From: an uncultured delta proteobacterium
GTDB taxonomy: Bacteria > Desulfobacterota > Desulfobacteria > Desulfobacterales > UBA2156
Direction: 5' to 3'
DNA length: 64,000 bases
Assembly: GCA_963736855.1 (NCBI GenBank)
Contig: CAVTQK010000021.1
Coordinates: forward strand, 320,001-384,000
The notes beneath the pieces are model-generated. The model did no database searches and was not told where the DNA came from. It saw only the letters and a program-made list of their open reading frames with translations. Shown here in pieces: positions 15,883-57,811 of this stretch. The stretch's first letter is position 1. Each line of letters starts with the position of its first letter. The position numbers and the translations under genes were made by a program.

Positions 15883-17428
15883 ATGCGTTACATTACTATA
15901 GTATCATTCAGATTGCTGATCATAGGGATTTTTATTTTATCGCTTGGATTTTTAGGATTCATATTTAAACCGTTTGAATATCACTTTCAAGGTCAAGAAA
16001 TTCCCTCAGAGGTTATCGTCAAGGGAAGAATGGGAAAATTGCTTAAAGAGCTGAATTTGCTTTTACCAATCAAAAAGGGGAACAATCCGCATCTGCTCCA
16101 GAGAAAGCAAGAAGAAACATTTTTTATTACAAATCCGGGGGAGCTGAATACTTTCCGAGCAGTGTCAATATTTCGGATGAAAAAGTTCAGGATGGATTGC
16201 CTTTACTGTCCTTGGTTGTTGAAAACAAAGATCTATATGATGAAAAAAACGGAATTATCGAGAATTACAATGAAAGAGGAAAAGAATGGGAACGGTTTTC
16301 CTACGTTTCCTATTTTGAAAATGGCCGATTGCAATTTGCCTCTGCCGTTGGCGTCCGTATTCATGGCGGAACGACCCGAAAACTGGAAAAGAAAAGTTAT
16401 CGAATCTATTGTCGCGATGAAATTGGAATGAGTCATTTTCCGGATAATCTTTTCCAGGAACCCAAACCGGGTCCGATCAGATCTCTGGTTATTCACCAGG
16501 ATCGTCCCACCGGCCTTCCCTTTACAACCTCCATTGCTTTTGACATCGCGAAAAAGATCGGGTGTGTTGTGCCTTCCTGTAAACCTGTAAAATTTTATTT
16601 AAATGGCGAACATCAAGGAATTTATTGGATTTCAGAACATCTTAGCAAAAGTCAGTGGGCATTATACTTTGGTCATGTAAATTTCTCCTTTTTTCGTTTT
16701 AAGGCTGAATCTGACCGTAAAAGCCTTAAAAATTATTTGAAACTGGTTCGATGGGCAAAGCAATTGGATCCCAAGACCCCCATTAAAGTTATCAATGAAA
16801 TCGTTGATGTCGAAAATATGACCAGGACCCTCATCGCAACCATCTTTTTAGGCAACAGCGATTGGGAACAGGGGGTTGCGGTATATAATCCGAAATCTGA
16901 AAATCCGTCTTGGTTTTGGATCATATGGGATGTGGATAAAAGTTTTCAGGATCATTCACCGGCAAGAAGCAGCAGAGAACCCTGGGAGCAGACGGGTATA
17001 CAACTTGTTCTCAGAGAAAAAAAAACAAGCATCGATGTCCGACGAATCCTGTTTCGAAAATTGATACTGAATAATTCAGAATATCTCGATTATTTCAGAA
17101 AAACGTTTACCGATATCATCAATCATGAAATAACCCCGAACTTCATCGATGAGAGATGCCGGTATTATGAAACACTTGCTGTTGCATTCAAAAATGAAAA
17201 GCCGTTTAATCCAATGATCAAAGAATTTTTAATCAAGCGACCTGAATATCTTTTATTTGATTTACAACGGCATTTAAACCCGGACGACCTGGAGATGTCA
17301 AGTTAATGGACCGGAAAAAAAATAATTCATCAGATCAATGGAAATTTGGAAAAAGCGGGTTATAGAGGCCTCTGTTATGAAAAACAAGTTTCCAAGGTTC
17401 TTTGTCGATGAACGAGTTCGACGATGAT
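15883..17428 (+). CDS. CotH-family kinase 1 (N-terminal membrane anchor), frameshifted and apparently C-terminally truncated
   Basis: RGKEWER, GVRIHGGTTR, KSYRIY, YLNGEHQGIY, GNSDW, WFWIIWDVD. Frameshift in the G-run at ~16140. A C-terminal extension (QVNGPE...INGNLEKAGYRG) follows in shifted frames to ~17420. Confidence 0.8.
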
Positions 17429-20400
17429 AATGACAGCCGGTTAATCGTTTATAATTCGGATAATAACCTACAAGTAAATATTGATCTGGAAAAGTTTGGA
17501 AGCATACGGAAACTTTACCTCGAGCCAATTGATGATTTTGCCATAATCGTAATCAATGAAATTGAAGTCCATAAACTTGATAATCAAATTTATCGAAATC
17601 CTATTTTTTCAACAAACTCCGAATTCCATGAAAATAATTGTTACTTTTTTACGAATAAGAATCCTCAAATAATTATAAATTTATTCAACAATCAGGTTCG
17701 ACGCATCGTATTTAATTTATTTTTCAAATCAATAGGGGTTGATGCTCTTTACAGCAGTATTAAAAAATTCAATGAACAAAAAATTGATGCTGATCAAATT
17801 CATCTACAATATTTTGAATTGTCAGAACGATTTAAAGCTATAGAAGAAAGATATGCCGAGAGTATCGAAAGAAAGAATATTGTATTAGAGAAATTTGAAC
17901 AAGAAATATTTGAGTCGCAACAAAAGCTTTTATACCAAACTCAACGATGCGAATCTGTTTTGAATTCTAAATCATGGGCCATCACCGCCCCGCTTCGATT
18001 CTTTAATGAACATATTCATAAGATAATTCATGAAATAAGATTACTTCTAAATATTTTAAATGGAAAATATTCCGCGATTAGAAAATCCGGATTATTCGAT
18101 ATAGACTATTATTTAAATAACCATCCGGACATCAAAAATAGAAATCTCAATCCCATCATTCATTATTTATATCATGGTGAAAAAGAGGGTCGCAAACCGA
18201 ACCCTTTGTTCGATATTCAACATTATCTGAAACAGAACCCTGACATTATTCTCTCAGCAGAAAATGCTTTGATTCACTTTTTAAGGGTTGGCTCATTCCA
18301 TGGGAAGGACCCGAATCCCTTGTTTTCTATCGCTTTTTATTGCAGCAAATATTCCGAAGTTGCAGAAGCCGGGTTAAATCCTCTCTATTACTACATCGCG
18401 CATGGATGCAAAAATGATCACAACACACACCCGCTATTTAACAGCGTGTATTATAAATCACAACTAAAAGAAAAGAATGTCGGGAATTCGGATCCATTGT
18501 CCCACTTTATTCAGAAAGGGGTTTATGAAGGAAAGGACCCACATCCGCTTTTTTCCACATTCTTTTATTGCAATAGTCATCCTGAAGTTGCAGAATCCGG
18601 ATTGAATCCTCTTGTGCATTACATCCAGATAGGTGCGAGGCTACGCTGGAGCCCCCATCCTCTGTTTGATTCCGAATACTACTGCCAACAGTTCAATGAT
18701 GCTTTAAAATTGATTTCTGATCCGCTGGAGCATTACCTAAGGATCGGATACAAAGAGAGTATTAATCCACATCCATTGTTTGATTCGGATTATTATGTGA
18801 ATCACTATTTAAAAAGTATTCGATGCGAAATGACTCCTCTAGAACATTATTTACTTGAGGGTGCTAAAAATGGTCTGAATCCTTGTCCGATGTTTGATAC
18901 TTTCCATTATTTGAGAAAAAATCCAGACGTGGGGAAAAAAGGTATCAACCCTTTATCCCATTATGTTCAAATCGGATCGAAAGAAGGACGGGACCCCAAT
19001 CCGCTGTTCAGTTCATCTTATTATTTGGGAAACAATCCCGATGCCGGTGAAGGCGACATCCCGCTTCTGCTTCACTATATCATGAAAGGATCAAAGGAAA
19101 ATAAGAGTCCTGGACCGCTATTGGATGCCGGGTTTTATTTGAAGAAATATCCGGATGTGGCCCTATCCGAAATGAACCCTTTATTGCATTATCTCGAATA
19201 CGGAATCCGCGAGGGAAGGGTTCCAAACCCTACACTCGAAGGTTTCTTAAGAAAACCTAAAATCAGCATCCTGGTGCCGGTTTATAATACCGATGCGCGG
19301 TTTCTTCATGAAATGATCCATTCGGTGATGCGGCAAATTTACCCTCATTGGGAATTATGTATTGTTGATGACGGGAGCAGCAGGGCCGAAATTAGGGACA
19401 TTCTGAAACAATATGCCGATAAAAATGAAAAAATAAAAATAAAGATACTGAATCGAAACACCGGAATATCGAACGCCTCGAATGAAGCGGCGTCACTGGC
19501 CACGGGTGAATTCATCGGCTTGTTGGATCATGATGATGTTTTAACGATGGATGCACTATATGAAGTGGTTAACGCAATCAACTGTAACCATTCAGAAATT
19601 TTCTATTCGGATGAAGAACTCATTGATGAAGAGGGTCGATCTCAGGGATCGATTTTAAAGCCGGATTTTTCACCGGACTTGCTTTTTTCGCATAATTATA
19701 TTACCCACTTCATGGTTTTCAATCGAGGACTCTTTTGATGAAGTCGGTGGATTTGATTCTCGCTGTGATGGAGCCCAGGATTATGATTTAATACTCAAGA
19801 TTTCCGAAAAGTCAAAAAACATTCATCATATTAAGAAAATCCTGTATCTATTGGCGTAAAAGCGCCTCATCTACCACTTCAAACCCTGCGAACAAAAGCT
19901 ATGCGGATGATGCCGGGAAGATATGCATTGAGAGTGCTACTCTTTATCGACGAAAGATAAACGCGGTGCGGTTTTGATGCGAATATTCCATTTTTTTATA
20001 GAGTTAAGAGAGAGATATCCGAAAATCCTCTGATCAGTATTATCATTCCGTTCAGAGATAAACCGTACTTTTTAATAACGCTGCATCGAAACCATATTAT
20101 CGGAAAATCCAGTTATTCGAACTTTGAAATTATCGGCATCGATAATGGTAGCGAACAGACTGAGACGAAATCTCTTATGGAAAATTTGGAAAAATCGGAT
20201 AATCGAATCGTCTTTTTTCATTATCCGTTGCCGTTTAATTATTCGAAAATCAACAATTACGGGGTTCCTTGGCCTCCGGTGAAATGATCTTCCTTCTCAA
20301 CAATGACGTGGAGATTCTCAATTCGGACTGGCTAGAGGCATTACTCGAACATGGACAAAGAAATGAGGTCGGAGCAGTCGGCGGTAAGCTTTATTACCCG

Positions 20401-20872
20401 AACGGAACGATTCAACATGCCGGAGTAATTGTTGGAATCTCCGGATTTGCAGGTCATTCCCACCGACATTACAAAAAAAGATGCCGAAGGTTACGGGAAT
20501 CGGCTCATGTGCATCCAGAATGTCAGCGCAGTTACGGGCGCCATGTTGATGGTTAGAAGAAAATTATTCGTAGAAGCAGGAGGTCTTGATGAAGATTTTT
20601 TGGCAATCTCTTTGAATGATATTGATTTTTGTCTGCGATTGCGGCAAAGAGGCTTTTTAAATATTTTTACGCCCTATTGCGAAGCGGTTCATCATGAATC
20701 CGTTTCGAGAGGATATGAGGAAACTCCTGAACAAAAATTTCGATTTCAAAAAGAAATCAAGTATTTTCAAAAGAAATGGGGAAAGATCCTTACCAGCGGA
20801 GATCCTTATTATAACCCGGGGTTGACACTGGAACGGGAGGACTTCTCGTTAAAAAATCGGCTAAAAATGTAA
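17402..20872 (+). CDS. Large glycosyltransferase: beta-sandwich-like domain, coiled coil, 10 PLFD repeats, two GT2 domains; at least 6 frameshifts in 19735-20480
   Basis: KSWAITAPLR after the coiled coil. ISILVPVYN, VDDGS, LLDHDD, GAQDYDL (shifted frame), SIIIPFRD, LLNNDVE, QHAGV, AVTGAMLM, NDIDFCLR. Confidence 0.8.
18086..19225 (+). repeat. Ten tandem 38-aa PLFD repeats (114 bp period), diverged at DNA level
   Basis: Ten units counted from SGLFDIDYY to GIREGRVP; consensus PLFD..YY...PDV...G.NPL.HY...G.KEGR.P. Confidence 0.9.
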
Positions 20873-20958
20873 GCACGAACACATTGATAAGATTGTGCGC
20901 CGCTAGAAGGCGGCAGGCTGGGCTCAACCGAATATTTCGTCTAGATGAAAAAGGAGAA

Positions 20959-23035
20959 ATGAGGACTATGAAACATACGGCAACTAACATCACGATTGCC
21001 TCCCGGATTTTCTTTATTATTTTCGCGTTGGTTTTGGCCGGATCCCATTCGATCGGTGCACAGAATGTGCCCCGAGAAAACGGCTTAAAAGCTAAAATTG
21101 TTTGGGCCGAAAATGACGGGAAAAATTTTCAGATATATTACAGCAGTTACAAAGACCGAATCTGGACGACAAAAGTCGCTCTGACGAATGACAATTTGAT
21201 GAATACCACGCCTGTAATCGACGTCGGAAATGATGGCGTGGTTTGGGTCATATGGTCCGTCGTTTCCGGGGCAACCAGTGATCTTTATTATTGTTTTTTT
21301 GACGGATCCGCATGGTCCTATCCATCTAAAATTCCGACCCCTTTCTCATCTAATACTTCTCCATCCGTCTTGGTGGCTCCGGATAATGTTCCCTGGGTCG
21401 TCTGGGCCGGTTTCGACGGAAAGGACGATGATATTTTCTTATCCCGATGGAATGGTACTTCCTGGGAAACTCCCTCAAGGGTCAACCGGAATGATACGGA
21501 TCCGGATATCGTGCCGACGATCTGGAAAAATTCCGGCGGATCCATTTGTGTGAAATGGTCCGGATATACGGAAAAGGCGTATCGCAACTATGTTGCTGAA
21601 TATACAGGGGAGAAGTGGAACGAAGAACGGGAAGAAACCGGCGGGGAATATCATTCGATCATGGAAAAGTTGGCCGGAGTCATGCCCGACCTTCCCGGCT
21701 TTGTAAAAAACCTGGAACTTGCGGCAGTCCATCTGGAAGTTAACGGAGAGAAGAATGCATTTCGACTCCGTGATATGATTGACGAAAACAGGGAACGGAC
21801 GCTCTCTCAAACCACTGAAACCTCTGAGCAGACTCTGGCCGGCGAGGAAATCATCATCGGATTCGGAGACAGCATCACCCAGGGGATTCCTTATGTGAAC
21901 AGTTATGGAGAAGGAAGACGCGTCGGAGGTTACGAACCCCATTTGGAAGCATTGACCCAGGGCACCGGATGGCAGACGCCAGGTACTAAATTACGGCGTG
22001 GGCGGGGAATCGACTCTCTCAGGCCTCCAGAGGATCGGAAGTGTGTTGAGTAGGTATACTGCCAAATATGTTCTTATATTAGAGGGGACGAACGATCTCG
22101 AATATTACGGTATTTCGCTTGCATCGACACTTCGCCACTTAGACGCCATGGTCGATATCAGCCGTCAATACAACGTGATACCGGTGCTTGCCACGTTGAC
22201 CCCGGATACAAAGAATTCTAGAAGAGACATCCCCACGGTCTATAATCCGGAAATTGTCCGTTTGGCGTCAGCGAAAAAAGTTCCGCTCGCCGATCAATAT
22301 ACGGCCATGGCCCCCAATTGGCATTCCTTGACGTCCGACGGGTTACATCCCAACAATGCGGGTTATCAGGTCATGGCATCAGAGTGGTTTGATACTTTGC
22401 CGGAACTAACCGCCATAACGCTTGATGCAACGGATGTGGCGGAAAGTTCGGTTGTCTTCAACGGCAGTGTCAACCCGAAAGGGTATCCGACGAGATGCTT
22501 CTTTGAATATGGATATGATGCGAATTTCGGCGGCCAAACGGCCGTAGTGGATATCGGCCCCGAAAAGACAGACATCCCTGTCAGCATCGGCGCCGACAAC
22601 CTTTCCGAAAACAGTACTTATTATTTCAGGTTGGTCGCATACAATGATTATCTCACCGTAAAAGGAAACACCCTGGCTTTACAGACTTTGGAGAGCTCTT
22701 CAGGCGGATGTTTTATCGCCACCGCGGCTTTCGGATCTTCTCTTGAATCACACGTGATCACCCTGAAAAATTTCAGGGATAAATTCATGATGACCAACAA
22801 CCTGGGGAAGCGGTTTGTTCGTTTTTACTATCGCCACTCACCGCCTTTGGCAAATTATATTTCAAAACATGAGACCCTGAAAGTGCTGATAAGAGGCGCC
22901 CTGCTTCCGGTTATCGGAGTCTGTGCTTTGGCGCTGAATTCCCCCTTTTGGCTTTTCATCGGAGTAGGGGGACTATTCTTCTTCGTCGTGTCGGGTGTGG
23001 TGGTGACGTTTTCAGCAAAGAGGCGACGTATATAA
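20959..23035 (+). CDS. Secreted protein: propeller-like N-domain, SGNH/GDSL hydrolase, Fn3-like domain, CFI-box-CTERM sorting domain; frameshift at ~21975
   Basis: AGGAG upstream of the ATG, signal-peptide-like start. GDSITQG, NYGVGGE (shifted frame), [33 protein letters not shown]...FRD...FYYRHSP then a TM helix and basic tail. Confidence 0.8.
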
Positions 23036-23185: not shown

Positions 23186-23887
23186 ATGGGGAGCGAATCC
23201 AAATTTGATTATGAGCTGAAATACGTTTTTAATAAAAGCGTATTAGACCTCGTTTTAGCTTGGATAAACAGCTTTTGCCTGCCGGATCCTCTCTATCTTT
23301 TTGGAAAGGTTTCGAGTGTGTACTTTGACACAAGAAACCTGCGGTTATTGGAAGAAAAGGTCAACAGCGATTATATCAAATCCAAATTCAGGATCCGATG
23401 GTATTCGACCGGCGATCCTGAATCTCCCAATGATATATCGTTTCTCGAGATCAAACATAAAATCGGAACCACGCGTAAAAAACGGAGAATAGAATGCCCT
23501 GTCTCCGGGAAATACATGGCCGGCGCGGATCTCACCGCCGATGCATATTTGGATATCGCCTCGATCCTCAGGGCAGAGGGGGAACTATTCGGGGAAAACC
23601 TCTTTCCATTGTTTCAAATTGATTATAAGCGATGGCGGTTTGTGGATCCCCGGAGCGGTATGCGACTTTGTGTGGACTGTGACATTTCAGTACCCAAAGT
23701 CAACGAATCCATATTTCCAAACCTGTTGCCGCTTTTTTTGGAAAACGGTGTTTTCGAAATCAAGGGTTCACTCGACGAACTGCCGCAAACCCTGAATCCT
23801 TTGACCTTACTGGGATGCAGAAAAGAATCGTTTTCAAAGTATAGGAACTGTTTTGAAAAATTGAACGCTTTCTACCGTTTTGCTTAG
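23186..23887 (+). CDS. VTC-domain protein (polyphosphate polymerase / CYTH tunnel fold)
   Basis: YELKY, SSVYFDT, KFRIRWY, FLEIKHK, YKRWRF, RLCVD, FEIKG, SFSKY. Confidence 0.85.
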   Translation: MGSESKFDYELKYVFNKSVLDLVLAWINSFCLPDPLYLFGKVSSVYFDTRNLRLLEEKVNSDYIKSKFRIRWYSTGDPESPNDISFLEIKHKIGTTRKKRRIECPVSGKYMAGADLTADAYLDIASILRAEGELFGENLFPLFQIDYKRWRFVDPRSGMRLCVDCDISVPKVNESIFPNLLPLFLENGVFEIKGSLDELPQTLNPLTLLGCRKESFSKYRNCFEKLNAFYRFA

Positions 23888-23915
23888 GCATAATAGTTTC
23901 GACAAAGGAGATGGC

Positions 23916-24620
23916 ATGGAAAAAGTTGATATGATGAAACTGTTAACAAGCTTTTCGAATCCCAAGATGGCAGAGATCGGTTTTTTACCGTTTCTATTTG
24001 TTCTTCTTATATCTTTGGCAAGCGCGTTTTTCATATCGCTCCTATATGTCTACTTCTCAAGTTCGAGTAAAACAGGAAGTAAAATACACCGAAGTTTTCC
24101 ACTACTCGCCGTTTCTATTACGGCAATATTTATTTGTATTCAATTTTCATTGCCTCTTTCTTTAGGACTATTAGGTGCGCTTTCCATTGTCCGATTCAGG
24201 ACCCCGGTTAAGGAACCGGAAGAAATCGGGTTTATTATGTTGGTCATCGCATCGTCTATCAGTTGCGCAATTTTCAATATGCTTTTCTTGGCGATCATCC
24301 TGATTATTGCTGTAATCGCAACTATTATCGTAAGATACAGCAAAGGGATATTGACGGGTAAGGCCACCGGAGGCATGCTGCTCATGAAGGTGCCCAAGGT
24401 TGAATACCGGGAAAAAAACGATGGAATTATCCATGAGATTCATAACTTGCTGCCAAAAGGGAGAATCGACGGAATCACATCAACTGATTTGGAAACAACG
24501 ATATCCTGTTCATTTTCAAAAATGAGCATCGATACGTACTTGGATATACAAAAGCGGCTTCAAACGATTTCAGAAAACGTTAAAGTGAATCTATTTTACA
24601 ATAATCCGGGGGAATTATAG
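23916..24620 (+). CDS. DUF4956-family membrane protein
   Basis: LSLGLLGALSIVRFRTPVKEPEEIGFI signature; 4-5 TM segments plus a soluble C-terminal domain; GGAG upstream of ATG 23916. Confidence 0.85.
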   Translation: MEKVDMMKLLTSFSNPKMAEIGFLPFLFVLLISLASAFFISLLYVYFSSSSKTGSKIHRSFPLLAVSITAIFICIQFSLPLSLGLLGALSIVRFRTPVKEPEEIGFIMLVIASSISCAIFNMLFLAIILIIAVIATIIVRYSKGILTGKATGGMLLMKVPKVEYREKNDGIIHEIHNLLPKGRIDGITSTDLETTISCSFSKMSIDTYLDIQKRLQTISENVKVNLFYNNPGEL

Positions 24621-24694
24621 CCGGATTCTCTCAATATCATCCAAACATTTCTTTTTCCTTCTGAGTTAAATTGCTGAATTTATTGGCCGGTTTG

Positions 24695-26795
24695 ATGCGA
24701 AAAGTTATTATAATATCTATGTCCATGATATTTTTTCTTGCCGTAGGGATCTTTTTTGAAAAATCTCCCTTCTTTAAAAGAAGCAGAGAATATGCACATG
24801 AAAAATCCATTCCGATGGGATTTTTCGACCGTGGACATGGAGCACTGGGGCGCATCTTGAAACAATTATCGGTGATCAGAGTAATTCCGAGAAGATGACC
24901 AGTTCGATCCGATGAAAGCAACGAAAAACAGCGCACTGCTGAAGATCAATATCCAAACCGAAGGGGAAGAGCGATTCCAGGTTTATTGGGCCGATGAAAG
25001 CCATCAGTATGATGAGAGAAGATCGAATATCATTTTTCTCAGAATGAGCGAAAATGATTATTATTTGAACTTAGTCGATCTAAAAACGATTCGGTGGCTG
25101 AGAATCGATCCGACAGATAAGCCCTCAAAAGTGTTGATTAAAGAAATGTCGATTGAGCAGGAAGGATATGACCTGATCCAGTATAAGAAAAATGAAGATT
25201 TTGAAAAAATGATTCCACTCAATGATATCAGAGAAATTTCTTTCGGTTCTGAAGGGGCAACAGTAGTAACTTCAGGCGATGATGCCCATTTTGAAATCTC
25301 AATAGAGGCCAGGGTATCAAAAGAAGCCGATAATAAATTGATGAATGAGAGCATTTTTTCAAAAAAGCGACGGATTACAGAGAATCTTTATACGGTGAAC
25401 CCGGGACGCGCGGAAGAATTTCCAAGCAGCAGACTGGTGAGTAACGAATTGATTCAAAAAAATGTTCCGATCCTTTCGGTTGCAACCGAAGAAGACTCTC
25501 TGCATGGATATCGAAGGGGTATCATCCAAAACTGGTGGCAAAGAGGACAAAACTGGGAACGCTTGGCGTATGTATCCTATTACGAAAACGGAAAGCTGCA
25601 ATTTGCCACAAGCGCCGGACTGCGATTGCAAGGCGGGAGCACTCGAAAAGCAGGAATCAACTTCAGGCTCTATTTTCGAAAAAAATATGGAATGAAAGAA
25701 ATAGAACCCGGAATGATATTCGGTTCGAATACGCAACCGATCAAGAGACTTGTGATATCTTCAGATCGATCGAGCCCAAGATTTAATAACCCCCTTGCAT
25801 TGAAATTGCACGTAAGTCGGTTGCTTAACGCCTGAAATAAAGCCTGTATATTTTCTTTTAAACGGAAAACCACCTGTCGATATCGCATATTTTGTAATCG
25901 AGTGTTTAGATAAAAAACAATGGATAAATCATATCGGACATGACGATTTCATATTTCTTACGTTAAGGACTCAGGAATAATATTCCTGATGATCAAATGC
26001 ATTATGATGAGCTTGAAAAAAAAATCAACCATAAAGAACGCATGACGATGGATGAAGTTTATAAAGATATCGACATCGACAACCTTTCCCGATTCATTAT
26101 CACAACAGTATTTTGCGGAAACTGGGATAATGTTCAGGGAGCAGCGATTTTTAATAGAGAAGAGTGCGGATCCAAAATGGTTCTGGGTGATGTGGGATAT
26201 GGATGTTTCGTTTCTTGATCATGAGAGGGAAAATATTCAAAGGAGAGCTTTGGAAGCAAAAAGGATTTTCAATAACCTTGCAAGATGAATTTAGAATGAC
26301 GCTCTTTAGACGTTTGATGGAGGAGTGCCCGAAATACCATCAATATTTTTTAGAGATTATTTATGGATATATTGAATCATCAAATCAACAAATCTTTTTT
26401 ACTGTCTCAAATCGAAAAATATGAAACAATATCCAAAGCGATGTTTGATTCAAAGCCGTATTTTAATAGTCAAACCATGCGGGAATTCATGGAGAATCGC
26501 TCAGGTTTTCTTAGAAATGATTTAAACAAATATTACGGAGACAAATTCCCAATTAAAGAAAGCGTTCCTTGCACAGGTCGAGGGTCCTCCTGAGATCACT
26601 TATCGAATCGACGGCTATTTGGAAAAGCCGGGGTATCAGGGATGGTATTTCAAAGGCCAGACCATCGATATTCAAATTGAAAAGCCATTTCAGAACCGGT
26701 TTTCTCATTGGATCGTCAATGGGGAGAAAAAAACAGATGAACACCTGATTCTTCCCGTTGACGGTGAGATGGTTATCGAGCCTTCGTTCAACTAA
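24695..26795 (+). CDS. CotH-family kinase 2 with N-terminal anchor and beta-sandwich-like domain; several frameshifts
   Basis: RGQNWER, GLRLQGGSTR, NFRLYFR, GNWDN, WFWVMWDMD across fragments 24671, 24912, 25997, 26052, 26203 and 26363. Tail GPPEITYRIDG...FSHWIVNG...EPSFN stops at 26795. Confidence 0.75.
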
Positions 26796-26840: not shown

Positions 26841-28022
26841 ATGAAAATTTTAATGATCGCACCGCAACCCTTTTTTTCACCGAGGGGGACGCCGTTCAGC
26901 GTCTTGTATCGTCTGCATGCCTTATCGAAACTCGGACACCAGGTCGATCTTGTGACCTATCATATCGGAAAAGACGTCCCGATCAAAAACGTTTCGATCA
27001 AACGGATACCGGCGATTCCCTTTGTCAAGAGCATCCGCATCGGACCTTCAAAGATAAAAATCCTGCTGGATTTTTTTATCCTTCTAAAAACCGTTCAACT
27101 GCTGCTTCAGGGGGACTATGACGTCATTCACTCTCACGAAGAGGCCGGCTTCTTCTCGACCTGGCTTGCCAGGATATTCGGTATCAAACACCTCTATGAT
27201 ATGCATTCCTCTTTACCGCAGCAGCTCAACAACTTTAAGTTTACGACATCCAAGTTGTTGATCCATTCTTTTGAAATGCTTGAAAAAAATACACTCAAAA
27301 ATGCCGATGGGGTAATCACCATCTGCCCGGCGCTGTTCGATTACGTGGAGGGGTTGTTTCCCGAAAAAAATCAGGCGCTCATCGAAAACGTGGTGGATAA
27401 TTCCTGGGTTTTGGAATCCGGAAACGAAACCGTTTTTTCTCTGATGCAGCGCTATGGGCTCAAGAACGATTTGAAAATTCTCTATACCGGAACATTCGAA
27501 CCCTATCAAGGGATCGATTTGTTGATTGAATCGGCCAAAGAGGTGGTGAAACACCATTCCGAAGTGACCTTTCTTCTTGTGGGGGGTGATCCGAAACAGA
27601 TTTCGCACTACAGACAGCAGGTTGATGAAGCCGGTTTGGGAAGTCAGGTTATCTTCACAGGGCAGGTGTGGCCTAATCTGATCCCGCTCTTTATCGAACT
27701 TTCGGATATTTTGGTTTCCCCGAGAATTGAAGGAAACAACACGCCGTTAAAAATTTACTCCTATTTAAGATCCGGAAAGCCGATTGTCGCCACCGATCAT
27801 CCGACCCATACCCAGGTCCTTAACGACCAAATCGCGGTATTGACGAAGATGACACCCGAATCGTTTTCCAGTGGAATAATAAAATTGATAAATAACAGTA
27901 AGTTGAGAAAAGAAATATCAGATAAAGCATTAGATATGGCAACTGCCAAATACAGCTTCGAAGGATATCTGTCAAAGACTAAGAAAATATACGAAAGTCT
28001 CGAGATAAAGGCGGGGAACTGA
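26841..28022 (+). CDS. Glycosyltransferase family 4
   Basis: APQPFFSPRGTP, HSHEEA, YTGTFEPYQG, TPLKIYSYL. Confidence 0.9.
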   Translation: MKILMIAPQPFFSPRGTPFSVLYRLHALSKLGHQVDLVTYHIGKDVPIKNVSIKRIPAIPFVKSIRIGPSKIKILLDFFILLKTVQLLLQGDYDVIHSHEEAGFFSTWLARIFGIKHLYDMHSSLPQQLNNFKFTTSKLLIHSFEMLEKNTLKNADGVITICPALFDYVEGLFPEKNQALIENVVDNSWVLESGNETVFSLMQRYGLKNDLKILYTGTFEPYQGIDLLIESAKEVVKHHSEVTFLLVGGDPKQISHYRQQVDEAGLGSQVIFTGQVWPNLIPLFIELSDILVSPRIEGNNTPLKIYSYLRSGKPIVATDHPTHTQVLNDQIAVLTKMTPESFSSGIIKLINNSKLRKEISDKALDMATAKYSFEGYLSKTKKIYESLEIKAGN

Positions 28023-28027
28023 ATCGA

Positions 28028-29941
28028 ATGTGCGGAATCTGTGGCATTGTGAACTTCGAAAAAGAACATCTTGTTGAGCATGAAGATATTCGAAGAATGT
28101 GTCGCGTCATGATCCATCGTGGACCGGATGATGAAGGGATATGGATCGGGAAAAACGTCGGATTGGGGATGCGCCGATTGAGCATTATTGATTTGGTTAC
28201 CGGGAATCAACCGATTACAAATGAAGATGAGTCGATATGGATCGTATGCAACGGCGAGATCTATAATCATCATGAATTGAGGAGCGATCTCGAACAAAAG
28301 GGGCATGTATTCAGGACAAAATCAGACGTGGAATCGATCCTTCATGCCTATGAGGAATACGGTGAAGCGTGTTCGAAGTATTTAAATGGAATGTTCGCCT
28401 TTATTATCTGGGATAGATCGAAAAACCGCTTGCTCGTATCCAGGGACAGGATAGGGAAAAAACCGTTGTATTATTATCATGACAAGAACCGATTCATCTG
28501 CGGCTCGGAACTTAAAGCGATACTCCAGGTGAATGATATTCCTCGGCAGATTGATCTTGAGGCTTTGGATCATTACCTGACGTTTGAATACATTCCGGGT
28601 CCATTATCAATATTTAGAGATATTAAAAAAGTGATGCCGGGTCATTACCTTGTTCTCCAAGATGGGAAGATCCAGACGCGAGCGTACTGGAATATCCAGG
28701 AAAACCACAGCAATCAGAACCTGGCCGAACTCAAACATCATATTCGGGAACTGTTTCAGGATTCAGTTAAAATCCGGCTGATGAGCGATGTTCCTCTGGG
28801 AGCGTTTCTTTCCGGCGGAATCGATTCGAGCATCGTCGTCGCCTTAATGGCACGGGTTATGGATCGACCCGTTAAAACCTTTTCGATCGGCTTTGAAGAA
28901 TCGACGTACAATGAGCTGGAATATACGAGAATCATTGCAAGGCGATTTAAAACCGAACATCATGAATTCATCATCAAACCGGATGCGGTGTCTTTGACGG
29001 AGAAGCTGCTCGGATATCTGGACGAACCGTTGGGGGATTTTTCCATTTTTCCGACGTATCTGGTATCAAAAATGGCGCGTGAATACGTAACGGTCGCCCT
29101 GTCAGGAGATGGAGGGGATGAACTCTTTGCCGGATATGATACGTATATTGCCGACAAAATGGCTTCTTACTATCAAAGGATGCCGAAGTCCGTTCAAAAC
29201 GGTCTGATGGCTAAGTTCGTTAACTCGATCCCGCCGTCGGCGAAGAAGAAAGGGTTTGTAAACCGTTCAAAGCGGTTTATTGAAGGAACACTGTTGCCGA
29301 ACCGGTTGCGGCATGCGCGATGGATGATCTTTTTGCAGCAAAGTGAAAAGGATTTATTGTACGACGAGGATCTGAAAGCGAATCTTTCGGGGACGGATTC
29401 CTATCATTACCTTTACAGCTATTTTAATGAAGCCAGGCAGTACGATCCGAAAGATGAATTGAATCAACAATTATACGTCGACATCAAAACGTATCTGGTT
29501 GACGACATCCTCGTAAAAGTGGACCGCATGAGTATGGCCGAGTCGATAGAAGCAAGAGCGCCGTTTTTGGATTATCGCTTTGTGGAGCTGATAGCATCCA
29601 TCCCTGGAAAATTGAAATTGAAAGGGATGCAAACCAAATGGATATTGAAAGATGCCATGAAAGACCTTTTGCCCAAAGAAATCTTAACCCGAGGGAAGGA
29701 AGGATTCAGCATCCCGATAAAAAATTGGCTGCAAAACGAATTGAGGCCCATGATGATGGATATCCTTTCATCGGATCGGATTGCAAGCGGAGGGTTGTTC
29801 AATTCACAATATATCGATAAAATGAAAATCGAACATCTCAACGGGACCCAGAACCACAGCCATCGTCTTTGGGCGCTGATGGTTTTTGAAATTTGGAAAG
29901 ATAAATATCTGAAACCGGCAAACCCATCAACCTCAACGTAG
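28028..29941 (+). CDS. asnB: Asparagine synthase (glutamine-hydrolysing)-like amidotransferase
   Basis: MCGICG, HRGPD, RRLSIIDL, NGEIYN, FLSGGIDSS, LSGDGGDELF, EARAPFLD. Confidence 0.95.
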   Translation: MCGICGIVNFEKEHLVEHEDIRRMCRVMIHRGPDDEGIWIGKNVGLGMRRLSIIDLVTGNQPITNEDESIWIVCNGEIYNHHELRSDLEQKGHVFRTKSDVESILHAYEEYGEACSKYLNGMFAFIIWDRSKNRLLVSRDRIGKKPLYYYHDKNRFICGSELKAILQVNDIPRQIDLEALDHYLTFEYIPGPLSIFRDIKKVMPGHYLVLQDGKIQTRAYWNIQENHSNQNLAELKHHIRELFQDSVKIRLMSDVPLGAFLSGGIDSSIVVALMARVMDRPVKTFSIGFEESTYNELEYTRIIARRFKTEHHEFIIKPDAVSLTEKLLGYLDEPLGDFSIFPTYLVSKMAREYVTVALSGDGGDELFAGYDTYIADKMASYYQRMPKSVQNGLMAKFVNSIPPSAKKKGFVNRSKRFIEGTLLPNRLRHARWMIFLQQSEKDLLYDEDLKANLSGTDSYHYLYSYFNEARQYDPKDELNQQLYVDIKTYLVDDILVKVDRMSMAESIEARAPFLDYRFVELIASIPGKLKLKGMQTKWILKDAMKDLLPKEILTRGKEGFSIPIKNWLQNELRPMMMDILSSDRIASGGLFNSQYIDKMKIEHLNGTQNHSHRLWALMVFEIWKDKYLKPANPSTST

Positions 29942-30086
29942 ATTTAGCTTTTGAATATCTGTGTTTTGCGATAATCAACATTGAAGGTTCTTTTGCGCCC
30001 TTAGGGATAAACGGTTTTAAAACACATATAAAAATGGTCACAAAGCGAGCAAACTCGAACTTTTAAAGCTTATTTAGTAAACGATC

Positions 30087-31088
30087 ATGAACTGGAAAAA
30101 TAAACACATTCTTGTCACAGGCGGCGCCGGATTTATTGGCTCACACCTGGTGGAAGCGCTTGTTGAAAAAGGAGCGATCGTAACGGTTGCCGACAACTTG
30201 TGGAGAGGGAAAATTGAAAACCTGAAAAACCATGATGCACTCGACTTAATCGACCTTCAGAATGATTTTTTTCAGGTGGATCTTACTCAAAACGAAAATT
30301 GCAGGCGTGTTACACGAAAGCAAGATATGGTTTTTCATTTGGCGGATGTGGTGGCCGGGATCAATTATGTGTTCGGAAATGAGCTGTCGCTTTTTAATTC
30401 CAACGTGTTGATCAACACGAATATGCTTCACGCATCAATCGAATCCCAGGTGGATCAATTCATATATGTCGGAACGGCCTGCAGTTATCCCAAGGAAAAG
30501 CAGAACAAGCTTAATATGCCGCTTTTGAAAGAAGAAGATGTATTTCCAGCCAATCCGGAATCTTCTTATGGTTGGAGCAAACTCATGGGAGAGTATGAAT
30601 GTTCTCTGGCATTAGAAGAAAATTTGATTAATGTTGGAGTGCTCCGTTTGCACAATGTTTATGGACCAAAGACCGATTTTTCTCCCGAAAAATCCCAGGT
30701 GATTCCCTCATTAATTCGGAAAGCGATCAACTACCCTGCAGAGGAATTTATCGTTTGGGGATCCGGTGAACAGCGAAGGGCTTTTATCTATGTTGATGAT
30801 GTTATCGAAGCACTCCTTCTGGTGGCGGAAAAAGGAATGAATCAGGGACCCATTCAAATCGGACCGGATTACAGCACATCGATTCGTGAAATCGCGGAGA
30901 CCATCGTAGCCATTTCAGAAAAGAATATTTCCATTGTTTATGATACATCGAAACGAGAAGGAGACAAAGACAGGGCGGCGGATTGGACAAAAGCCAAAGA
31001 GATTCTTGGCTGGAGTCCCAAAACAACCATAAAAGATGGATTAACCGCAACGTATAACTGGATTAAGGAAAAATTGATAAGCTTGTAA
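30087..31088 (+). CDS. NAD-dependent epimerase, GDP-mannose 3,5-epimerase-like
   Basis: TGGAGFIG, FHLADVVAGI, GTACSYP, PESSYGWSK, RLHNVYGP. Confidence 0.8.
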   Translation: MNWKNKHILVTGGAGFIGSHLVEALVEKGAIVTVADNLWRGKIENLKNHDALDLIDLQNDFFQVDLTQNENCRRVTRKQDMVFHLADVVAGINYVFGNELSLFNSNVLINTNMLHASIESQVDQFIYVGTACSYPKEKQNKLNMPLLKEEDVFPANPESSYGWSKLMGEYECSLALEENLINVGVLRLHNVYGPKTDFSPEKSQVIPSLIRKAINYPAEEFIVWGSGEQRRAFIYVDDVIEALLLVAEKGMNQGPIQIGPDYSTSIREIAETIVAISEKNISIVYDTSKREGDKDRAADWTKAKEILGWSPKTTIKDGLTATYNWIKEKLISL

Positions 31089-31170
31089 AAGGCCGATTTA
31101 CCGGATTCTTGATGCATTGAAGATGCCTCTGACACTCGAACCCTTTAATCCGATTTTATTTGAGGTTTTT

Positions 31171-31893
31171 ATGACACAAAAAGATTTTGATTTTAGTGTA
31201 GTGATTCCCACCTATTTTGAAGAGCAGACCATTGGTTTTGTTCTGGATGAGGTCAATGAGTTAAAAAGCGATCACCACATGGAAGTCATCGTCGTTGACG
31301 ATACCTCGAAGGACAAAACGCGCAATATTGCCGAGGAAAAAGGAGCCCGCGTTCTCATCAATCCCAATAGAAAAGGAAAGGGATCCAGCCTTCTTTATGG
31401 TTTTTCCAAAAGCAAAGGTAAGTATTTGGTCATGATGGATGGCGACGGCTCCCACCGAGCCGTTGATGCTCCAAAACTGCTGGAAGTTTTGGAGAAGGAG
31501 CCGCAGGTGGGGCTGGTCATTGCTTCGAGGATCATGGGCGGAAGCGACGAATACACGCCAATCAAGGCGCTGGGTAATGTTTTTCTGACCTATTTTACAG
31601 GGCTTTTCCTCAAACGCTATTTATCGGATGCCATTAACGGTTTCAAAGCATTCCGAAGAGAAATATTTGACTGTTCCGAATTCGATTCCTATTCATTTGA
31701 CTTGGAAATTGAACTCATCGCGAACACCATGAGAAGAGGTTTTCAGGTAAAGGAAGTCGCCAGCCATGAGAGAGAGCGGTTGGCAGGGGAAGCAAAGGCA
31801 AAGATACTTCAGGATGGAACCCGGTTTTTCTTAAGAATTTTCAAGGAATACCTGAAAAACAGGCGACTGGACAAAAGTTGTAAGTCCGCTTAA
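31171..31893 (+). CDS. GT2, polyprenol-phosphate glycosyltransferase (DPM1-like)
   Basis: VVIPTYFEE, VVDD.S.D, GKG, MDGDGSH, ASR, GFKAFRR, E..ER..GE.K; GAGGT upstream of ATG 31171. Confidence 0.85.
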   Translation: MTQKDFDFSVVIPTYFEEQTIGFVLDEVNELKSDHHMEVIVVDDTSKDKTRNIAEEKGARVLINPNRKGKGSSLLYGFSKSKGKYLVMMDGDGSHRAVDAPKLLEVLEKEPQVGLVIASRIMGGSDEYTPIKALGNVFLTYFTGLFLKRYLSDAINGFKAFRREIFDCSEFDSYSFDLEIELIANTMRRGFQVKEVASHERERLAGEAKAKILQDGTRFFLRIFKEYLKNRRLDKSCKSA

Positions 31894-31961
31894 TGTAGAA
31901 CCGCTCTGCCATTTTGTTCACCACCCAAATCCTTTTTTAGTTTTAGAAAATTTTATCATAA

Positions 31962-33455
31962 ATGAAAGTTCAACTGTTTATTCCGCCGCAAGGATATGTC
32001 GCCCAGCGCTGGTCTGAAGGTAATTCAATGCCTTCTTTGGGGATTTTATTTTTAGCGGCTGTTTTGGAAAAACAAGGGATCGACGTCGATGTCGTACCCA
32101 CCGACATTTTAAAGTTGCATTGGGATGATATTTCAAAAAGAATTGAATCGTTCGCTCCGGATCTTGTGGGCGTCACGACAACAACGGAAAATCGTTTTGA
32201 CAGTTTTAAACTTGTTAAAACGGCTAAAGAAGTGAACCCAAATATCGTTACCATACTTGGCGGGCCCCATATTTCCATGGCCAAAGAGGATACCATCAAG
32301 CACATTAAAGACACGGATATCCTTTGCATTGGAGAAGGCGAACAGACAATCCGTGAACTGACATCCGCGATTGAAAACAAAGAACCTTTGTCGAAAGTGA
32401 AAGGAATTTATTATCGAGGAGAAGGAGGAAGGGCAATCTTCACAGGGCATCAGGAGGCAATTCACGATATCGATACACTGCCGTTTCCGGCAAGGCATCT
32501 CATTCCAATGGAAAAATATAATTTTTTTGTTGAAACCAGGGATGGCAGGAAACGAAAAGCGCAAAACATCATCACATCCCGAGGGTGCCCATTCAACTGT
32601 TACTTCTGTTCAACGCCCGTCAACTGGGGAAGAAAAATGCGAGGACACTCTCCGGAGCGGGTTATTAAAGAAATCGAACATTTGATTGACCGATATGGGG
32701 CCGAATATATATGGTTTTACGATGATACACTGAATTACCACCCGGCAAGACTTCACAAGATCATGGATATGATCATCGAAAGAAAACTGGACATCAAATT
32801 CACCGCCGAATTGCGAATCGATTTGGTCGATAAACCGCTTTTAGAGAAAATGAAGAAAGCGGGGCTTGAAATCGGATCATTCGGAATCGAAGCCGGAAAT
32901 ACTCGGATACGGCAGGATGTGGTCAGAAAGAAATTCGATATAGAGCTCGCCTATCAGTTTTTAAACTGGTCCAAAGAACTCGATTTTATCCCCGGCCCAT
33001 TTTTTATTTTTTCTCACTATACGGAAACGTGGAGCGAAGCCAAAGAAACCGTTGAAATTATGGAAAAAGTAAAATCGATCAATCCGCTCGCAGATATCTC
33101 CAGCGCTATTTTGCACGTCTACCCAGGAACCTATCTCGAGACAATAGCAAAAAAGGAGAAGATCATTCCTTCCGATTTCTCTTGGGCAAAAGAAGAGGAT
33201 ATGAAGCGCGTTCATTCCCTTCCAGCGGCCCAGGGGCATGTTCCGCTGTTCAAGGATAAGCTCAACTGGTGGCAGATTGCCGATCTCGTAATGAGATGGT
33301 CATCTGCCAGCAATAAAAAAATATCGGGTTCAAAGATTAAAAGAACCCTGTCTTCTATAAAAAGCATCAAAGACGTCTTTATCAACATGGTATTTTTTAT
33401 CGTTTTTATAAAACATAAAACCAAGGCGTTCTTTTCAACGCCTAAGCATGCCTAA
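31962..33455 (+). CDS. B12-binding-domain radical SAM protein (class B methyltransferase-like)
   Basis: PSLGILFLAAVL, ILGGPH, GEGE, TSRGCPFNCYFC, FYDD, FGIE. Confidence 0.9.
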   Translation: MKVQLFIPPQGYVAQRWSEGNSMPSLGILFLAAVLEKQGIDVDVVPTDILKLHWDDISKRIESFAPDLVGVTTTTENRFDSFKLVKTAKEVNPNIVTILGGPHISMAKEDTIKHIKDTDILCIGEGEQTIRELTSAIENKEPLSKVKGIYYRGEGGRAIFTGHQEAIHDIDTLPFPARHLIPMEKYNFFVETRDGRKRKAQNIITSRGCPFNCYFCSTPVNWGRKMRGHSPERVIKEIEHLIDRYGAEYIWFYDDTLNYHPARLHKIMDMIIERKLDIKFTAELRIDLVDKPLLEKMKKAGLEIGSFGIEAGNTRIRQDVVRKKFDIELAYQFLNWSKELDFIPGPFFIFSHYTETWSEAKETVEIMEKVKSINPLADISSAILHVYPGTYLETIAKKEKIIPSDFSWAKEEDMKRVHSLPAAQGHVPLFKDKLNWWQIADLVMRWSSASNKKISGSKIKRTLSSIKSIKDVFINMVFFIVFIKHKTKAFFSTPKHA

Positions 33456-34953
33456 ATGTCTGAAATCCATAGAGACGTTGACAAATGCTCCCGTGAAGAG
33501 TTCGACTTAATCATTGTCGGAGGGGGTGTTTATGGAATGATGCTGGCACTCGAATCGGGTTTCCGTAACAAACGCTCTTTATTATTGGAAAAAAACGACT
33601 TTGCCTCCGCAACAAGCTTCAATCACCTTCGAACGCTTCACGGCGGGTTGCGTTATCTTCAATCGATGGATTTGCCGAGGTTTTTTGAATCGGTTCGGGA
33701 ACGGCAATGGTTTTTTGTTCATTTTCCCGATTTCGTGAAGATCTTGCCGTGCATCATGCCGTTGTATGACAAAGGCGTCCGCAGGAAGTCGATTTTAAGA
33801 TTTGCACTCAAGCTGAATGACCGGTTGTCGAAAAAGAGAAATGTGTCGGTTGTTCCTGATAAACACCTGCCGGACGGGTATGTCCTCTCTGATAAAGAAG
33901 TAAAAGAAATTTTTCCCCAAGTCGATGGAAACGGTTTAAAGGGAGGGGCGGTATGGTTTGACGGAATGATAACAGAGCCGGAAAGGCTTTTGATGGAAAT
34001 TCTTCGGTGGTCGTGCGGCATGGGATCAAAAGCCCTCAATTATATTCATGCAACCGAGCTGATCCTTAACAGTGGCAGAACCACAGGAGTCAGGGCATAC
34101 GATAAACAATCCAAGCGTGAACTCGAATTCCAGGCTCCGGTCGTCATCAATGCTGCGGGGCCATGGAACAGGGAAGTTGCCGAAAAATTTGATAGAGATC
34201 ATCCGTCCCTTTTTGAATCATACCTGTTGCTGTGGAATATCTTGTTTAACAGAAAATCGATTTCAGATTTTTCGTTGGCCGTTGCCCCTCGAAAAGGGTC
34301 AGGCCACACGTATTTCATACACAACTGGAAGGGCAGACTTCTTGTGGGAACGGGAGAAGACGCTATTCCCGGACATTGCATCAACGGCCTCCCCACAGAT
34401 CGGCAGATTCAAATATTTATCGACGAAATCCATTCGGCAATCCCCTCGCTCTCACTCGAGAAGGAGGAAATCGATCGAGTATATTGCGGCGTTTTGCCAG
34501 CCGATAAACATCACAATCTCACGAAACGAGAAGTCATTTTAAACCATGAAATGCATGGTGGACCGAAAAATTTGTTCAGCATCTCGGGGATCAAATTCAC
34601 CACTTCTCGGTTGGTGGCGGAAAAAACACTTGATATGGTTTTTCCTGAGGAAAAAAAAGGAGCCCGTAGAAATGCTTCAGCGCCGACTATAAAAAGTACC
34701 AGCAAAAGAGGAGCATTTCCTTTTGACTGGAAACCTCTTGCCGGGTCAAAACCTGTGGCTTGATGATTTAAGATCGATTATTTGCGAAGAATCCGTTCTT
34801 CACTTGGATGACCTGATTTTTCGAAGAACGAATCTGGGTGAAAATATAAATCGCCTGCCGCATGTAATTCCTTCGATTCGCGGTCTCTTCCCGTGGGACG
34901 ACCCAACCTGGGAAGCCGAATTAAATCGACTTCACCTGCCTTTGAGCAACTAA
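33456..34953 (+). CDS. FAD-dependent oxidoreductase, glycerol-3-phosphate dehydrogenase (GlpD)-like; frameshift at ~34750
   Basis: IVGGGVYG, DFASATS, HGGLRYLQ, NAAGPW, GIKFTTSR; C-terminal EESVLHLDDLIFRRT in the next frame. Confidence 0.85.
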
Positions 34954-43130: not shown

Positions 43131-43146
43131 TATTTTCTGCATCCCG

Positions 43147-44862: not shown

Positions 44863-44880
44863 CTGGACTGATAGCAACAA

Positions 44881-46938: not shown

Positions 46939-47049
46939 TGGCTTCGTAAAAAGTCCATCTGCTGCATTGCACTGAATCCTTCGTCATTGCGGCGTACCCA
47001 TATCATCGATTTTTTTGATCTTTGACCCTTTGAACCCTGTATTCAAACC

Positions 47050-48543: not shown

Positions 48544-48616
48544 CCGAAGTTCGGCTGAAGGTGCTGTGGTATTCAATGAACTTTGACTTCTGTTAACAGG
48601 TGAAAAAGAGGCCTCA

Positions 48617-51424: not shown

Positions 51425-51569
51425 TGGCATGAGTACCCATGCGATAAAAAGCCTTTTTCGAATGCGGTAAAATCCGATTAGCGTTCAATCGGACCTTGAT
51501 AAATCGAATAGTTTTTGCGAAAATATTTTTCGTAACTATTGAATCAAATCTAAAGGTGGTTCGCACAAT

Positions 51570-52343: not shown

Positions 52344-52355
52344 ATATTGTGTTTC

Positions 52356-54328: not shown

Positions 54329-54336
54329 TATAAATT

Positions 54337-57759: not shown

Positions 57760-57811
57760 GAAGAAATTACCCGTCCGGAAACGATCCGGATAAACCATTA
57801 AACAGATTAAT

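Follow-up and report, generated by a model that had tools for sequence, protein, structure and literature searches.

Genomic setting of a VTC–DUF4956–CotH gene trio

We examined a 64,000-nucleotide stretch of DNA (the window) from an uncultured delta proteobacterium (GenBank assembly GCA_963736855.1, contig CAVTQK010000021.1, positions 320,001 to 384,000). Three consecutive genes on its forward strand encode a VTC-family triphosphate-tunnel enzyme (23186..23887), a DUF4956 membrane protein (23916..24620), and a CotH-family kinase (24695..26795; CotH2 below). The genes are co-oriented, with intergenic gaps of 28 and 74 bp, and place the families PF09359, PF16316, and PF08757 side by side – the composition of a broad VTC–DUF4956–CotH gene set, here with its CotH in pieces. 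An earlier note, made from this sequence without database searches, had described three consecutive co-oriented genes embedded among glycosyltransferases. Gene order, strand, and the intact VTC and DUF4956 genes agree with that description, while CotH2 is not a single open reading frame (ORF) but is split by eight single-base insertions or deletions (indels), which the note had missed. The glycosyltransferase setting was likewise recovered by a Pfam scan of the window ORFs, in which genes for glycosyltransferases of families 2 and 4 (GT2, GT4), an epimerase, MBOAT, and YfhO flank the trio. As described below, the trio is a real, widespread, and functionally unsolved cassette; the gene set itself was already known, and the copy in the window is a variant that stands apart from pel loci.

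The window forms a low-GC glycan island (GC 0.29-0.46 in 2-kb steps, versus 0.49-0.55 for whole contigs) within a 3.9 Mb genome that is rated 100% complete. Since only 3 of 30 close relatives hold this CotH clade, the cassette is patchy among relatives, as is the glycan island.

Linkage of the three families across genomes

To define homologous loci, we took the best 80 of 312 relatives from a genome scan with a DUF4956 alignment and built neighbour profiles for the linkage counts from the sequences of these loci. By their titles, the 80 loci come from Desulfobacterota, Planctomycetota, Spirochaetota, Acidobacteriota, Verrucomicrobiota, and other groups, and the closest named DUF4956 relatives among them are deltaproteobacterial or Desulfobacterales records (L017 and L018). 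In 78 of the 80 loci, DUF4956 has a VTC gene no more than 1.5 kb away, one miss being a contig end and the other a true absence. CotH lies within 1.6 kb in 73, and four of the seven misses fall at contig ends; of the others, L024 has a CotH 8.5 kb away, and L023 and L085 have none within 10 kb. The linkage of the trio is thus beyond chance.

That the three families co-occur in other genomes, as the earlier note says, was also borne out when 301 genomes were sampled evenly across the phylum. DUF4956 exceeded its cut-off in 11 genomes, VTC in 14, and CotH in 14, and nine genomes – this one included – held all three. Among the 11 genomes with DUF4956, VTC and CotH were each present in 10, compared with 14 of 301 each overall. 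In a set of 14 control genomes, all three families matched in the same three, and Bacillus subtilis matched CotH alone. Corynebacterium glutamicum and Bacteroides thetaiotaomicron each match all three families. The trio does not appear to be obligate: one genome of the phylum sample has VTC and DUF4956 without CotH (G031), three have VTC alone (G022, G033, G278), and three have CotH alone (G116, G201, G215). The G201 CotH (L101:8195-9742) is lipoprotein-like; its gene belongs to a polysaccharide locus of the flippase type and has a PGA_cap phosphoesterase-type gene behind it.

To gauge the association with glycan genes, we searched for GT2, GT4, and epimerase genes with profiles whose seeds came solely from the window and this genome. 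Of the 35 full-length loci (at least 19 kb), 20 had a GT2 or GT4 gene within 10 kb; over all 80 loci, shorter stretches included, 36 had one. Among 40 fixed control stretches, drawn from three genomes of the same order, only 2 had such a gene, as did 12 of the 177 tiles of this genome. Expressed per 100 kb, this amounts to 5.5 glycosyltransferase genes at the loci versus 0.25 and 0.54 in the controls. The neighbourhood comparison that the earlier note had called for therefore gave an enrichment, the size of which is rough because the loci are related by descent and the controls represent a single order.

A VTC enzyme with the catalytic residues of yeast Vtc4

The VTC gene is intact, single-copy in the genome, and encodes 233 amino acids that match PF09359 at 65 bits (cut-off 23), which settles the family assignment that the earlier note had left to a profile search. 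The protein consists of the VTC domain only, with no SPX domain and no three-helix membrane domain of its own; its highest hydropathy window is 1.33, and it is predicted to be soluble. When its profile was compared with solved structures, yeast Vtc4 (3g3q) was the best match (E 1.7e-9), followed by Vtc2 and Vtc3, while the hydrolase YgiF reached only E 0.5.

We aligned 150 VTC sequences (a size limit), drawn from the loci and two homologue searches. K12, R69, R71, K90, R149, E191, S217, and K218 are invariant in all 150, and Y147 is tyrosine in 144 and phenylalanine in six. The catalytic residues given for Vtc4 are K200, R264, R266, K281, Y359, R361, E426, S457, and K458 (bioRxiv 10.1101/2023.01.27.525886, available text). 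All nine have counterparts in the window protein – eight by alignment and K200 by motif only – and the basic exit-side residues K294, R373, and K428 are kept as K99, R160, and K193. Predicted topology and alignment thus agree with the earlier note's soluble protein with intact basic tunnel motifs, and polymerase activity is plausible.

The resemblance to the yeast VTC complex (Vtc4/Vtc3/Vtc1; PDB 3g3q, 7ytj, 8i6v) extends from the tunnel-enzyme domain and its catalytic counterparts to the genetic tie between the enzyme and a small polytopic membrane protein. In contrast to the yeast proteins, the window enzyme lacks SPX, is unfused to membrane helices, and has an acidic N-terminal motif; its membrane partner has five predicted helices and an ACT-like domain rather than the three helices of Vtc1, and a kinase gene lies downstream.

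DUF4956, a predicted five-helix membrane protein with an ACT-like domain

The DUF4956 gene, also intact and single-copy, encodes 234 amino acids that match PF16316 at 42.9 bits (cut-off 30.6). Its start is likely the ATG at 23916 rather than the TTG at 23880, since a GGAG site precedes the former and homologues agree with it. Five membrane helices are predicted (residues 23-47, 57-75, 79-95, 101-118, and 122-146), in keeping with the small polytopic protein of the earlier note, and are followed by a C-terminal ACT-like domain (149-234) that is ferredoxin-like in the structural model. The AlphaFold model (predicted local distance difference test score, pLDDT, 75.5; predicted template modelling score 0.58) consists of five long helices and the ACT domain. 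Fold searches with the whole-protein model saw only the ACT domain, returning the C-terminal domains of two MgtC proteins (2lqj, and 7qa5 at Z 8.7) among many generic ACT-like folds.

A loop, RFRTPxKEPEE, is invariant, with R93, R95, K99, E100, E102, and E103 present in 120 of 120 sequences. Loop charges suggest that the N-terminus faces outward and that the ACT domain and the invariant loop lie inside; either a polyanion vestibule or a role in docking is conceivable for the loop. The order of five predicted membrane helices and an ACT-like cytoplasmic domain recalls MgtC/SapB proteins. The window protein differs from them in missing PF02308 (MgtC; no match at E 0.1), in its own conserved loop, and in its gene context, while one homologue touches PF02308 below the cut-off (L016; E 4e-6, 27.6 bits, cut-off 31.4). 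Compared with the sequences of solved structures, the DUF4956 profile found nothing below E 1.6, and a Pfam scan of the cassette proteins gave no match to DUF202, the Vtc1-type channel. A predicted complex of three DUF4956 subunits with VTC scored 0.30 and 0.28 against a mark of 0.32, which, with no controls folded, weighs neither for nor against such a complex.

An anchored CotH kinase with conserved catalytic aspartates

CotH2 comprises ~700 codons, which we traced by six-frame translation, tblastn, and frame-aware alignment to its homologues in L017 and L018. It begins with basic residues and a hydrophobic helix (24695..24760) that is predicted to place the N-terminus inside and the kinase outside. 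This anchor agrees with the N-termini of 21 homologues and with helix 2-23 in the model of the L018 protein, and an N-terminal hydrophobic segment is present in 69 of 80 CotH homologue ORFs. Then follow an inserted beta-sandwich with an R-x-D-P motif (24920..25300), predicted to resemble a carbohydrate-binding module (CBM); a kinase core with G-x-R-x-Q-G, a D-x-x-Q-G catalytic loop, and a W-D-M-D metal/adenine motif, all in pieces (25440..26550); and a C-terminal Ig/pilin-like beta domain (26560..26792; Z ~7.5 to pilin domains, a weak match). The earlier note's membrane-anchored CotH thus stands as far as an N-terminal anchor is predicted; in the assembly, the anchor sits on a separate short ORF (24695-24898).

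We modelled the fold on the intact L018 homologue, which matches PF08757 at 73.8 bits, using 66 sequences (pLDDT 91.5). The model contains the N-terminal helix, the beta-sandwich insert (~79-205), the kinase core, and the C-terminal Ig-like domain. Its core superimposes on Bacillus cereus CotH (5jda) with Z 24.6 and a root-mean-square deviation of 2.8 over 316 residues, followed by PI4K-II (Z 11.9) and Fam20 (Z 9.3; 5xom); the fold relatives of CotH include the lineage of the glycan kinase Fam20B (PMC7948968, available text). The best structural matches of the insert are the CBMs 4mgq (Z 8.3) and 2xhh (Z 8.1), both borderline, and in the ESM Atlas it matched unnamed clusters only (best 0.90, low recognition).

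D475 and D498, the counterparts of PKA D166 and D184, are present in 65 of 65 homologues, as are both aspartates of the WDxD motif. By sequence numbering only, the counterpart of PKA N171 differs: there is no asparagine at +5, and a glutamine at +3 in 64 of 65 homologues may stand in for it. The triad CotH thus resembles Bacillus CotH (PDB 5jd9/5jda) and Fam20 kinases in fold, catalytic aspartate, W-D-x-D motif, and adenine-stacking tryptophan. It differs from Bacillus CotH in its membrane anchor, its extra beta domains, and the apparent replacement of the catalytic-loop asparagine by a conserved glutamine two places earlier in its clade; B. subtilis, moreover, has no VTC or DUF4956 match.

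A second CotH gene (CotH1; 15883..17306, forward strand; PF08757 at 105.7 bits) lies ~6 kb upstream of the triad with no adjacent VTC or DUF4956; the earlier note does not mention it. A single frameshift near 16070-16140 separates its anchor from its kinase, but the kinase core is open over 369 amino acids with the same motifs, and a remnant of the C-terminal domain follows the stop. Both window copies keep the catalytic aspartate, W-D-x-D, the counterpart of the adenine-stacking tryptophan, and the glutamine that may stand in for the loop asparagine. CotH1 is 36% identical to the L018 CotH; a metagenome scan with it found no relative among 132 candidate stretches. It could draw on the same phosphate supply as the triad CotH.

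Frameshifts in CotH2 probably reflect assembly errors

The pieces of CotH2 are spread over all three frames. Only two small pieces reach PF08757, both below the cut-off. The earlier note's family call is supported, but the gene is not one ORF. Aligning the gene, with frame changes allowed, to its intact counterparts in L017 (714 amino acids) and L018 (701 amino acids) located the eight indels – six extra bases and two missing – at ~24890, 25804, 25808-25815, 25974, 26157, 26221, 26353, and 26575. The two queries disagreed on a ninth event at the extreme end, which the count leaves out.

Two explanations were weighed for this genome only. Most probably the indels are assembly errors and the gene is intact in the organism; somewhat unlikely, in our judgement, is a true recent pseudogene whose role was taken by the upstream CotH or lost. 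The pseudogene explanation draws on the indel density (3.8/kb, or eight in 2.1 kb, versus five in 164.6 kb across 140 conserved genes of the genome), on an in-frame TAA (25813-25815) within the densest indel patch, on VTC and DUF4956 being free of indels, and on the spare paralogue CotH1, which three relatives holding the triad CotH lack, showing one CotH match each. The neighbouring GT2 gene, however, has a comparably dense patch (five indels in ~740 bp), and 18 of the 22 located indels of the assembly are insertions, including all five in housekeeping-type conserved genes and seven of nine in six neighbouring stretches. Natural gene decay in bacteria leans to deletions, and this insertion bias therefore counts against a pseudogene. 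Relatives' contigs (~85-95% identity), among the matches listed, carry a compensating difference at each indel site covered. CotH2 also deviates at 4 of 65 conserved columns (homologue median 5), and its pieces contain no other stop in ~680 codons. Among the differences listed, which are few, its synonymous share is not below that of VTC (10/26 versus 6/14), and a codon-position test of pseudogene status on these small lists gave p 1.0. Long decay of CotH2 or DUF4956 was rejected, as conserved-column deviations equal those of close intact homologues.

Hybrid genes and other cassette variants

In 14 of the 80 loci, mostly of Desulfobulbaceae type, a gene of ~280 codons that we call X6 lies directly behind DUF4956 (L024, L026-L028, L031, L036, L040, L043, L045, L047, L050, L066, L068 at 10702-11547, and L072). 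X6 has no Pfam family match. In 13 aligned sequences, it consists of a membrane helix, the CotH-insert beta sandwich, a second membrane helix, and a DUF4956-type ACT tail; by hhalign, the periplasmic part matches the CotH insert at 98.5% and the tail matches the DUF4956 ACT domain at 98.6%. The R-x-D-P beta domain also heads GT-C/PMT-like membrane proteins (L023:5401-9236, L031:7203-9059, L095:1-1620). This domain shuffle, as read from the alignments, connects the membrane unit formed by DUF4956 with the kinase and with glycosyl transfer outside the cytoplasm. In L023, two GT-C/PMT-like proteins precede VTC and no CotH follows DUF4956, and a GT-C/PMT-like protein with the R-x-D-P beta domain is encoded in this bacterium's own genome outside the window (C21:271191-274157).

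Neighbouring genes of the loci were named by scanning 100 cluster representatives, with 497 singleton ORFs left out. One subtype carries an HlyD-like adaptor and an OEP/TolC-like gene inside the cassette (L008, L009, L010, L103), no ordinary pump being seen within these stretches; L011 and L014 also have an HlyD-like gene. At L016:7185-13945, the order is CotH, DUF4956 (the homologue with the weak MgtC match), a thymidylate-kinase-like gene, and VTC, with a divergent OprO/P phosphate porin gene beside them. PqqD-like and NTP_transf_5 genes adjoin the cassette in L066, L089, and L096.

Relation to the accessory genes of pel loci

The earlier note had proposed the trio as an undescribed system. 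The gene set is, however, in print beside pel operons: cotH, a poly-phosphate polymerase gene, and DUF4956 are described as accessory genes of Gram-positive pel loci, for which regulation by protein phosphorylation is suggested (Whitfield et al., PMC7112168, available text). In Streptococcus intermedius, the trio genes SIR_1594, SIR_1593, and SIR_1592 have each been deleted; by the available text, Pel was made in all mutants, and aggregation in sputum medium was >50% lower in the DUF4956 and CotH mutants (PMC12345266). By the same text, its authors found the trio at pel loci only. NELoc-2 of Clostridium perfringens contains these genes, differently named (PMC2879425, available text). Our literature search, within whose reach few subscription papers fell, found no mechanism or biochemical test of the trio.

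The window cassette shares with the pel accessory set the same three adjacent families beside glycan genes, a secreted CotH, and a membrane protein described there as MgtC-like transmembrane segments plus ACT (PMC7112168, PMC12345266, as far as the texts go). It differs in its hosts, which are diderms of many phyla, and in its setting: pel accessory genes are contiguous with pelDEADAFG and have a DUF4832 glycoside hydrolase (or DGC/PDE) gene as a fourth member, whereas the window has no pel genes and no DUF4832, and its neighbours in that place are a GDSL esterase and a GT4. It differs further in a clade-specific ExExK-type VTC motif, the DxxQG kinase loop, the CBM-like insert, and the hybrid X6 of clade loci. 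The 56 window ORFs or ORF pieces include no Pel family and the genome has no PelG match, on which latter ground we rejected a Pel accessory cluster as the identity of this locus.

A possible phosphate route to the envelope

Exported CotH kinases are a common feature of non-sporulating bacteria. What donates phosphate to them is an open question, since ATP is held to be absent from the periplasm. Our preferred reading, which we hold tentatively, is that polyphosphate (polyP) is made inside, passed out, and used by CotH to phosphorylate an envelope glycan. Cytoplasmic VTC would make polyP, or a short phosphoanhydride chain, from ATP; DUF4956 would pass it across the inner membrane to the outer face; and CotH, predicted to face outward, would use it on the glycan, donor and acceptor both being putative. 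The enzyme, transport, and kinase activities are proposed for all three proteins from sequence and structural models.

Several observations argue for this reading. The three genes are linked, VTC has counterparts of the Vtc4 catalytic residues, and neither PPK1 (PF02503) nor PPK2 (PF03976) matched anywhere in this genome at 100% completeness, so that VTC is the only candidate polyP maker found in it. The common N-terminal anchor and the invariant catalytic aspartates of CotH point to an outward-facing kinase, and X6 couples the CotH insert to the DUF4956 ACT domain across the membrane. The HlyD-like and OEP/TolC-like genes or OprO/P porin neighbour of other subtypes lend the cassette an export flavour, and a glycan acceptor is supported by the glycosyltransferase enrichment and by the Fam20B-lineage fold relatives. 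A more elaborate form is rather doubtful: polyP would be threaded through an MgtC-like oligomer to a docked, sugar-binding CotH, with X6 as an adaptor bringing the glycan to the pore and no ATP in the periplasm.

Other points weigh against polyP-fuelled glycan phosphorylation. In the VTC alignment, position 8 is acidic (E in 92 of 150, D in 18; D8 here) and E10 is present in all 150, whereas Vtc4 lacks acids there; the N-terminal motif is D-x-E-x-K in the window protein and E-x-E-x-K in the 92, and other-subtype VTCs of the phylum sample mostly have R-x-E-x-K. By the available text of Martinez et al. (PMC4641920), hydrolases build their second metal site from an acidic patch of four glutamates, which Vtc4 lacks and which marks hydrolases and cyclases; a counterpart of K458 also occurs in a plant hydrolase, where it is dispensable. 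DUF4956 has no conserved mid-membrane basic residues, and acidic and basic residues are equally numerous in its invariant loop. The tryptophan that stacks adenine in Bacillus CotH (W497; by sequence numbering, the Trp245 named in a review, PMC12189002, available text) is kept in 62 of 65 CotH homologues, and CotH may therefore still need ATP. Exported-looking CotH proteins occur without VTC or DUF4956 in G201 (100% complete; in a polysaccharide locus) and G116 (96%). In 15 of the 35 full-length loci, which are not independent, no glycosyltransferase gene lies within 10 kb. CotH2 is broken in the assembly as it stands. In S. intermedius, Pel was up in the DUF4956 mutant and down in the CotH mutant, and the available text states no change for the VTC deletion (PMC12345266); because a linear supply chain predicts like phenotypes, these knockouts misfit a simple linear pathway.

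Several of these observations suit an unlikely alternative in which DUF4956 would release ATP or another nucleotide to a CotH of the conventional, ATP-dependent kind, with VTC as a hydrolase or gate that drives or controls the release; this, too, would end in phosphorylation outside the cytoplasm. The retained tryptophan, an aromatic residue near the Tyr142 position in most CotH proteins, the hydrolase-type acidic residues of VTC, the thymidylate-kinase-like gene between VTC and DUF4956 in L016, and the reported phenotypes of the DUF4956 and CotH deletions but not of the VTC deletion (PMC12345266, available text) all fit it. VTC does share a tunnel fold family and an acidic N-terminal ExExK-type motif with the TTM tripolyphosphatases (E. 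coli YgiF, AtTTM3; PMC4641920, available text), but its closest solved relatives are all Vtc4, Vtc2, and Vtc3, with a far weaker match to YgiF. By motif only, two of the four acidic-patch positions of the window VTC are acidic (D8/E10), and the other two appear basic as in Vtc4 (K99 or R101, and K193).

Of similarly low probability is a transmembrane control unit, in which VTC would make or remove a small ligand sensed by the ACT domain, and DUF4956 and CotH would tune glycan synthesis or export. The ACT domain and MgtC-like build, the homologue that touches PF02308, the adjacency of the cassette to unrelated glycan systems, and the opposite Pel changes in two mutants while Pel was made in all (PMC12345266, available text) speak for such a role. 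An outward kinase with invariant catalytic aspartates would still need a phosphoryl donor, however, and the HlyD/OEP and phosphate-porin neighbours suit export better than signalling.

Least probable is polyP export for its own sake, in which VTC and DUF4956 would be a split bacterial VTC complex that places polyP in the envelope, with CotH attaching, priming, or trimming the chain instead of adding single phosphates to a sugar: the tighter linkage of DUF4956 with VTC than with CotH (78/80 versus 73/80), the VTC–DUF4956 pair of G031, the altered catalytic loop (D-x-x-Q-G instead of D-x-x-x-x-N), and the absence of PPK1 and PPK2 matches favour it, but the CBM-like insert and the glycosyltransferase enrichment point to a sugar acceptor, and the DUF4956 fold searches, filled by the ACT domain, showed no likeness to the Vtc1 channel.

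If the cassette supplies the donor for CotH, surface glycans would be phosphorylated by a new route, the yeast VTC complex would have a counterpart in bacteria, and DUF4956 would gain a function; the unexplained accessory genes of Gram-positive pel loci would be accounted for as well. As the three proteins are small and assayable, the question is directly testable, for which the intact homologues of L017 and L018 are preferable to this assembly.

Neighbouring genes in the window

Upstream of the trio, the forward-strand genes at 17402..23035 keep their order in L017 and L018: a repeat-bearing GT2 (17402-20872; the five indels noted above) and, directly upstream of VTC, an exported GDSL esterase with a CFI-box-CTERM sorting tail (20959-23035; one indel). 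In 10 loci, GDSL genes again lie close to the cassette. Downstream, a forward-strand run at 26841..34763 encodes a GT4, an asparagine-synthase-like amidotransferase, an epimerase, a GT2, a B12 radical SAM protein, and a GlpD-like oxidoreductase, in an order kept in L017 and for the most part in L018. The amidotransferase (within 28028-34763) is close to the XrtA/PEP-CTERM type, below the cut-off; the B12 radical SAM and GlpD-like genes (also within 28028-34763) accompany the cassette in L017 and L018 and recur in other loci.

An NCBIfam scan at E 0.01 gave no model for VTC, DUF4956, CotH, or X6, and the ORFs at 47050-48543 and 56452-57759 matched neither Pfam nor NCBIfam. Promoter-like sites (16, versus 13.2 in shuffles) and terminator-like sites (3, versus 8.4) did not exceed chance.

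Two large GT2 proteins (8867-12266 and 17402-20872) carry long arrays of ~38-residue repeats (P-x-P-L-F-x-x-x-Y-Y-like); both genes are frameshifted here and intact in L017 and L018. Further glycan tailoring genes lie at 43102-60184, encoding a PMT-like protein, MBOAT, a spermidine-synthase-like membrane protein, a nucleotidyltransferase-dehydratase-epimerase-DegT run, and YfhO.

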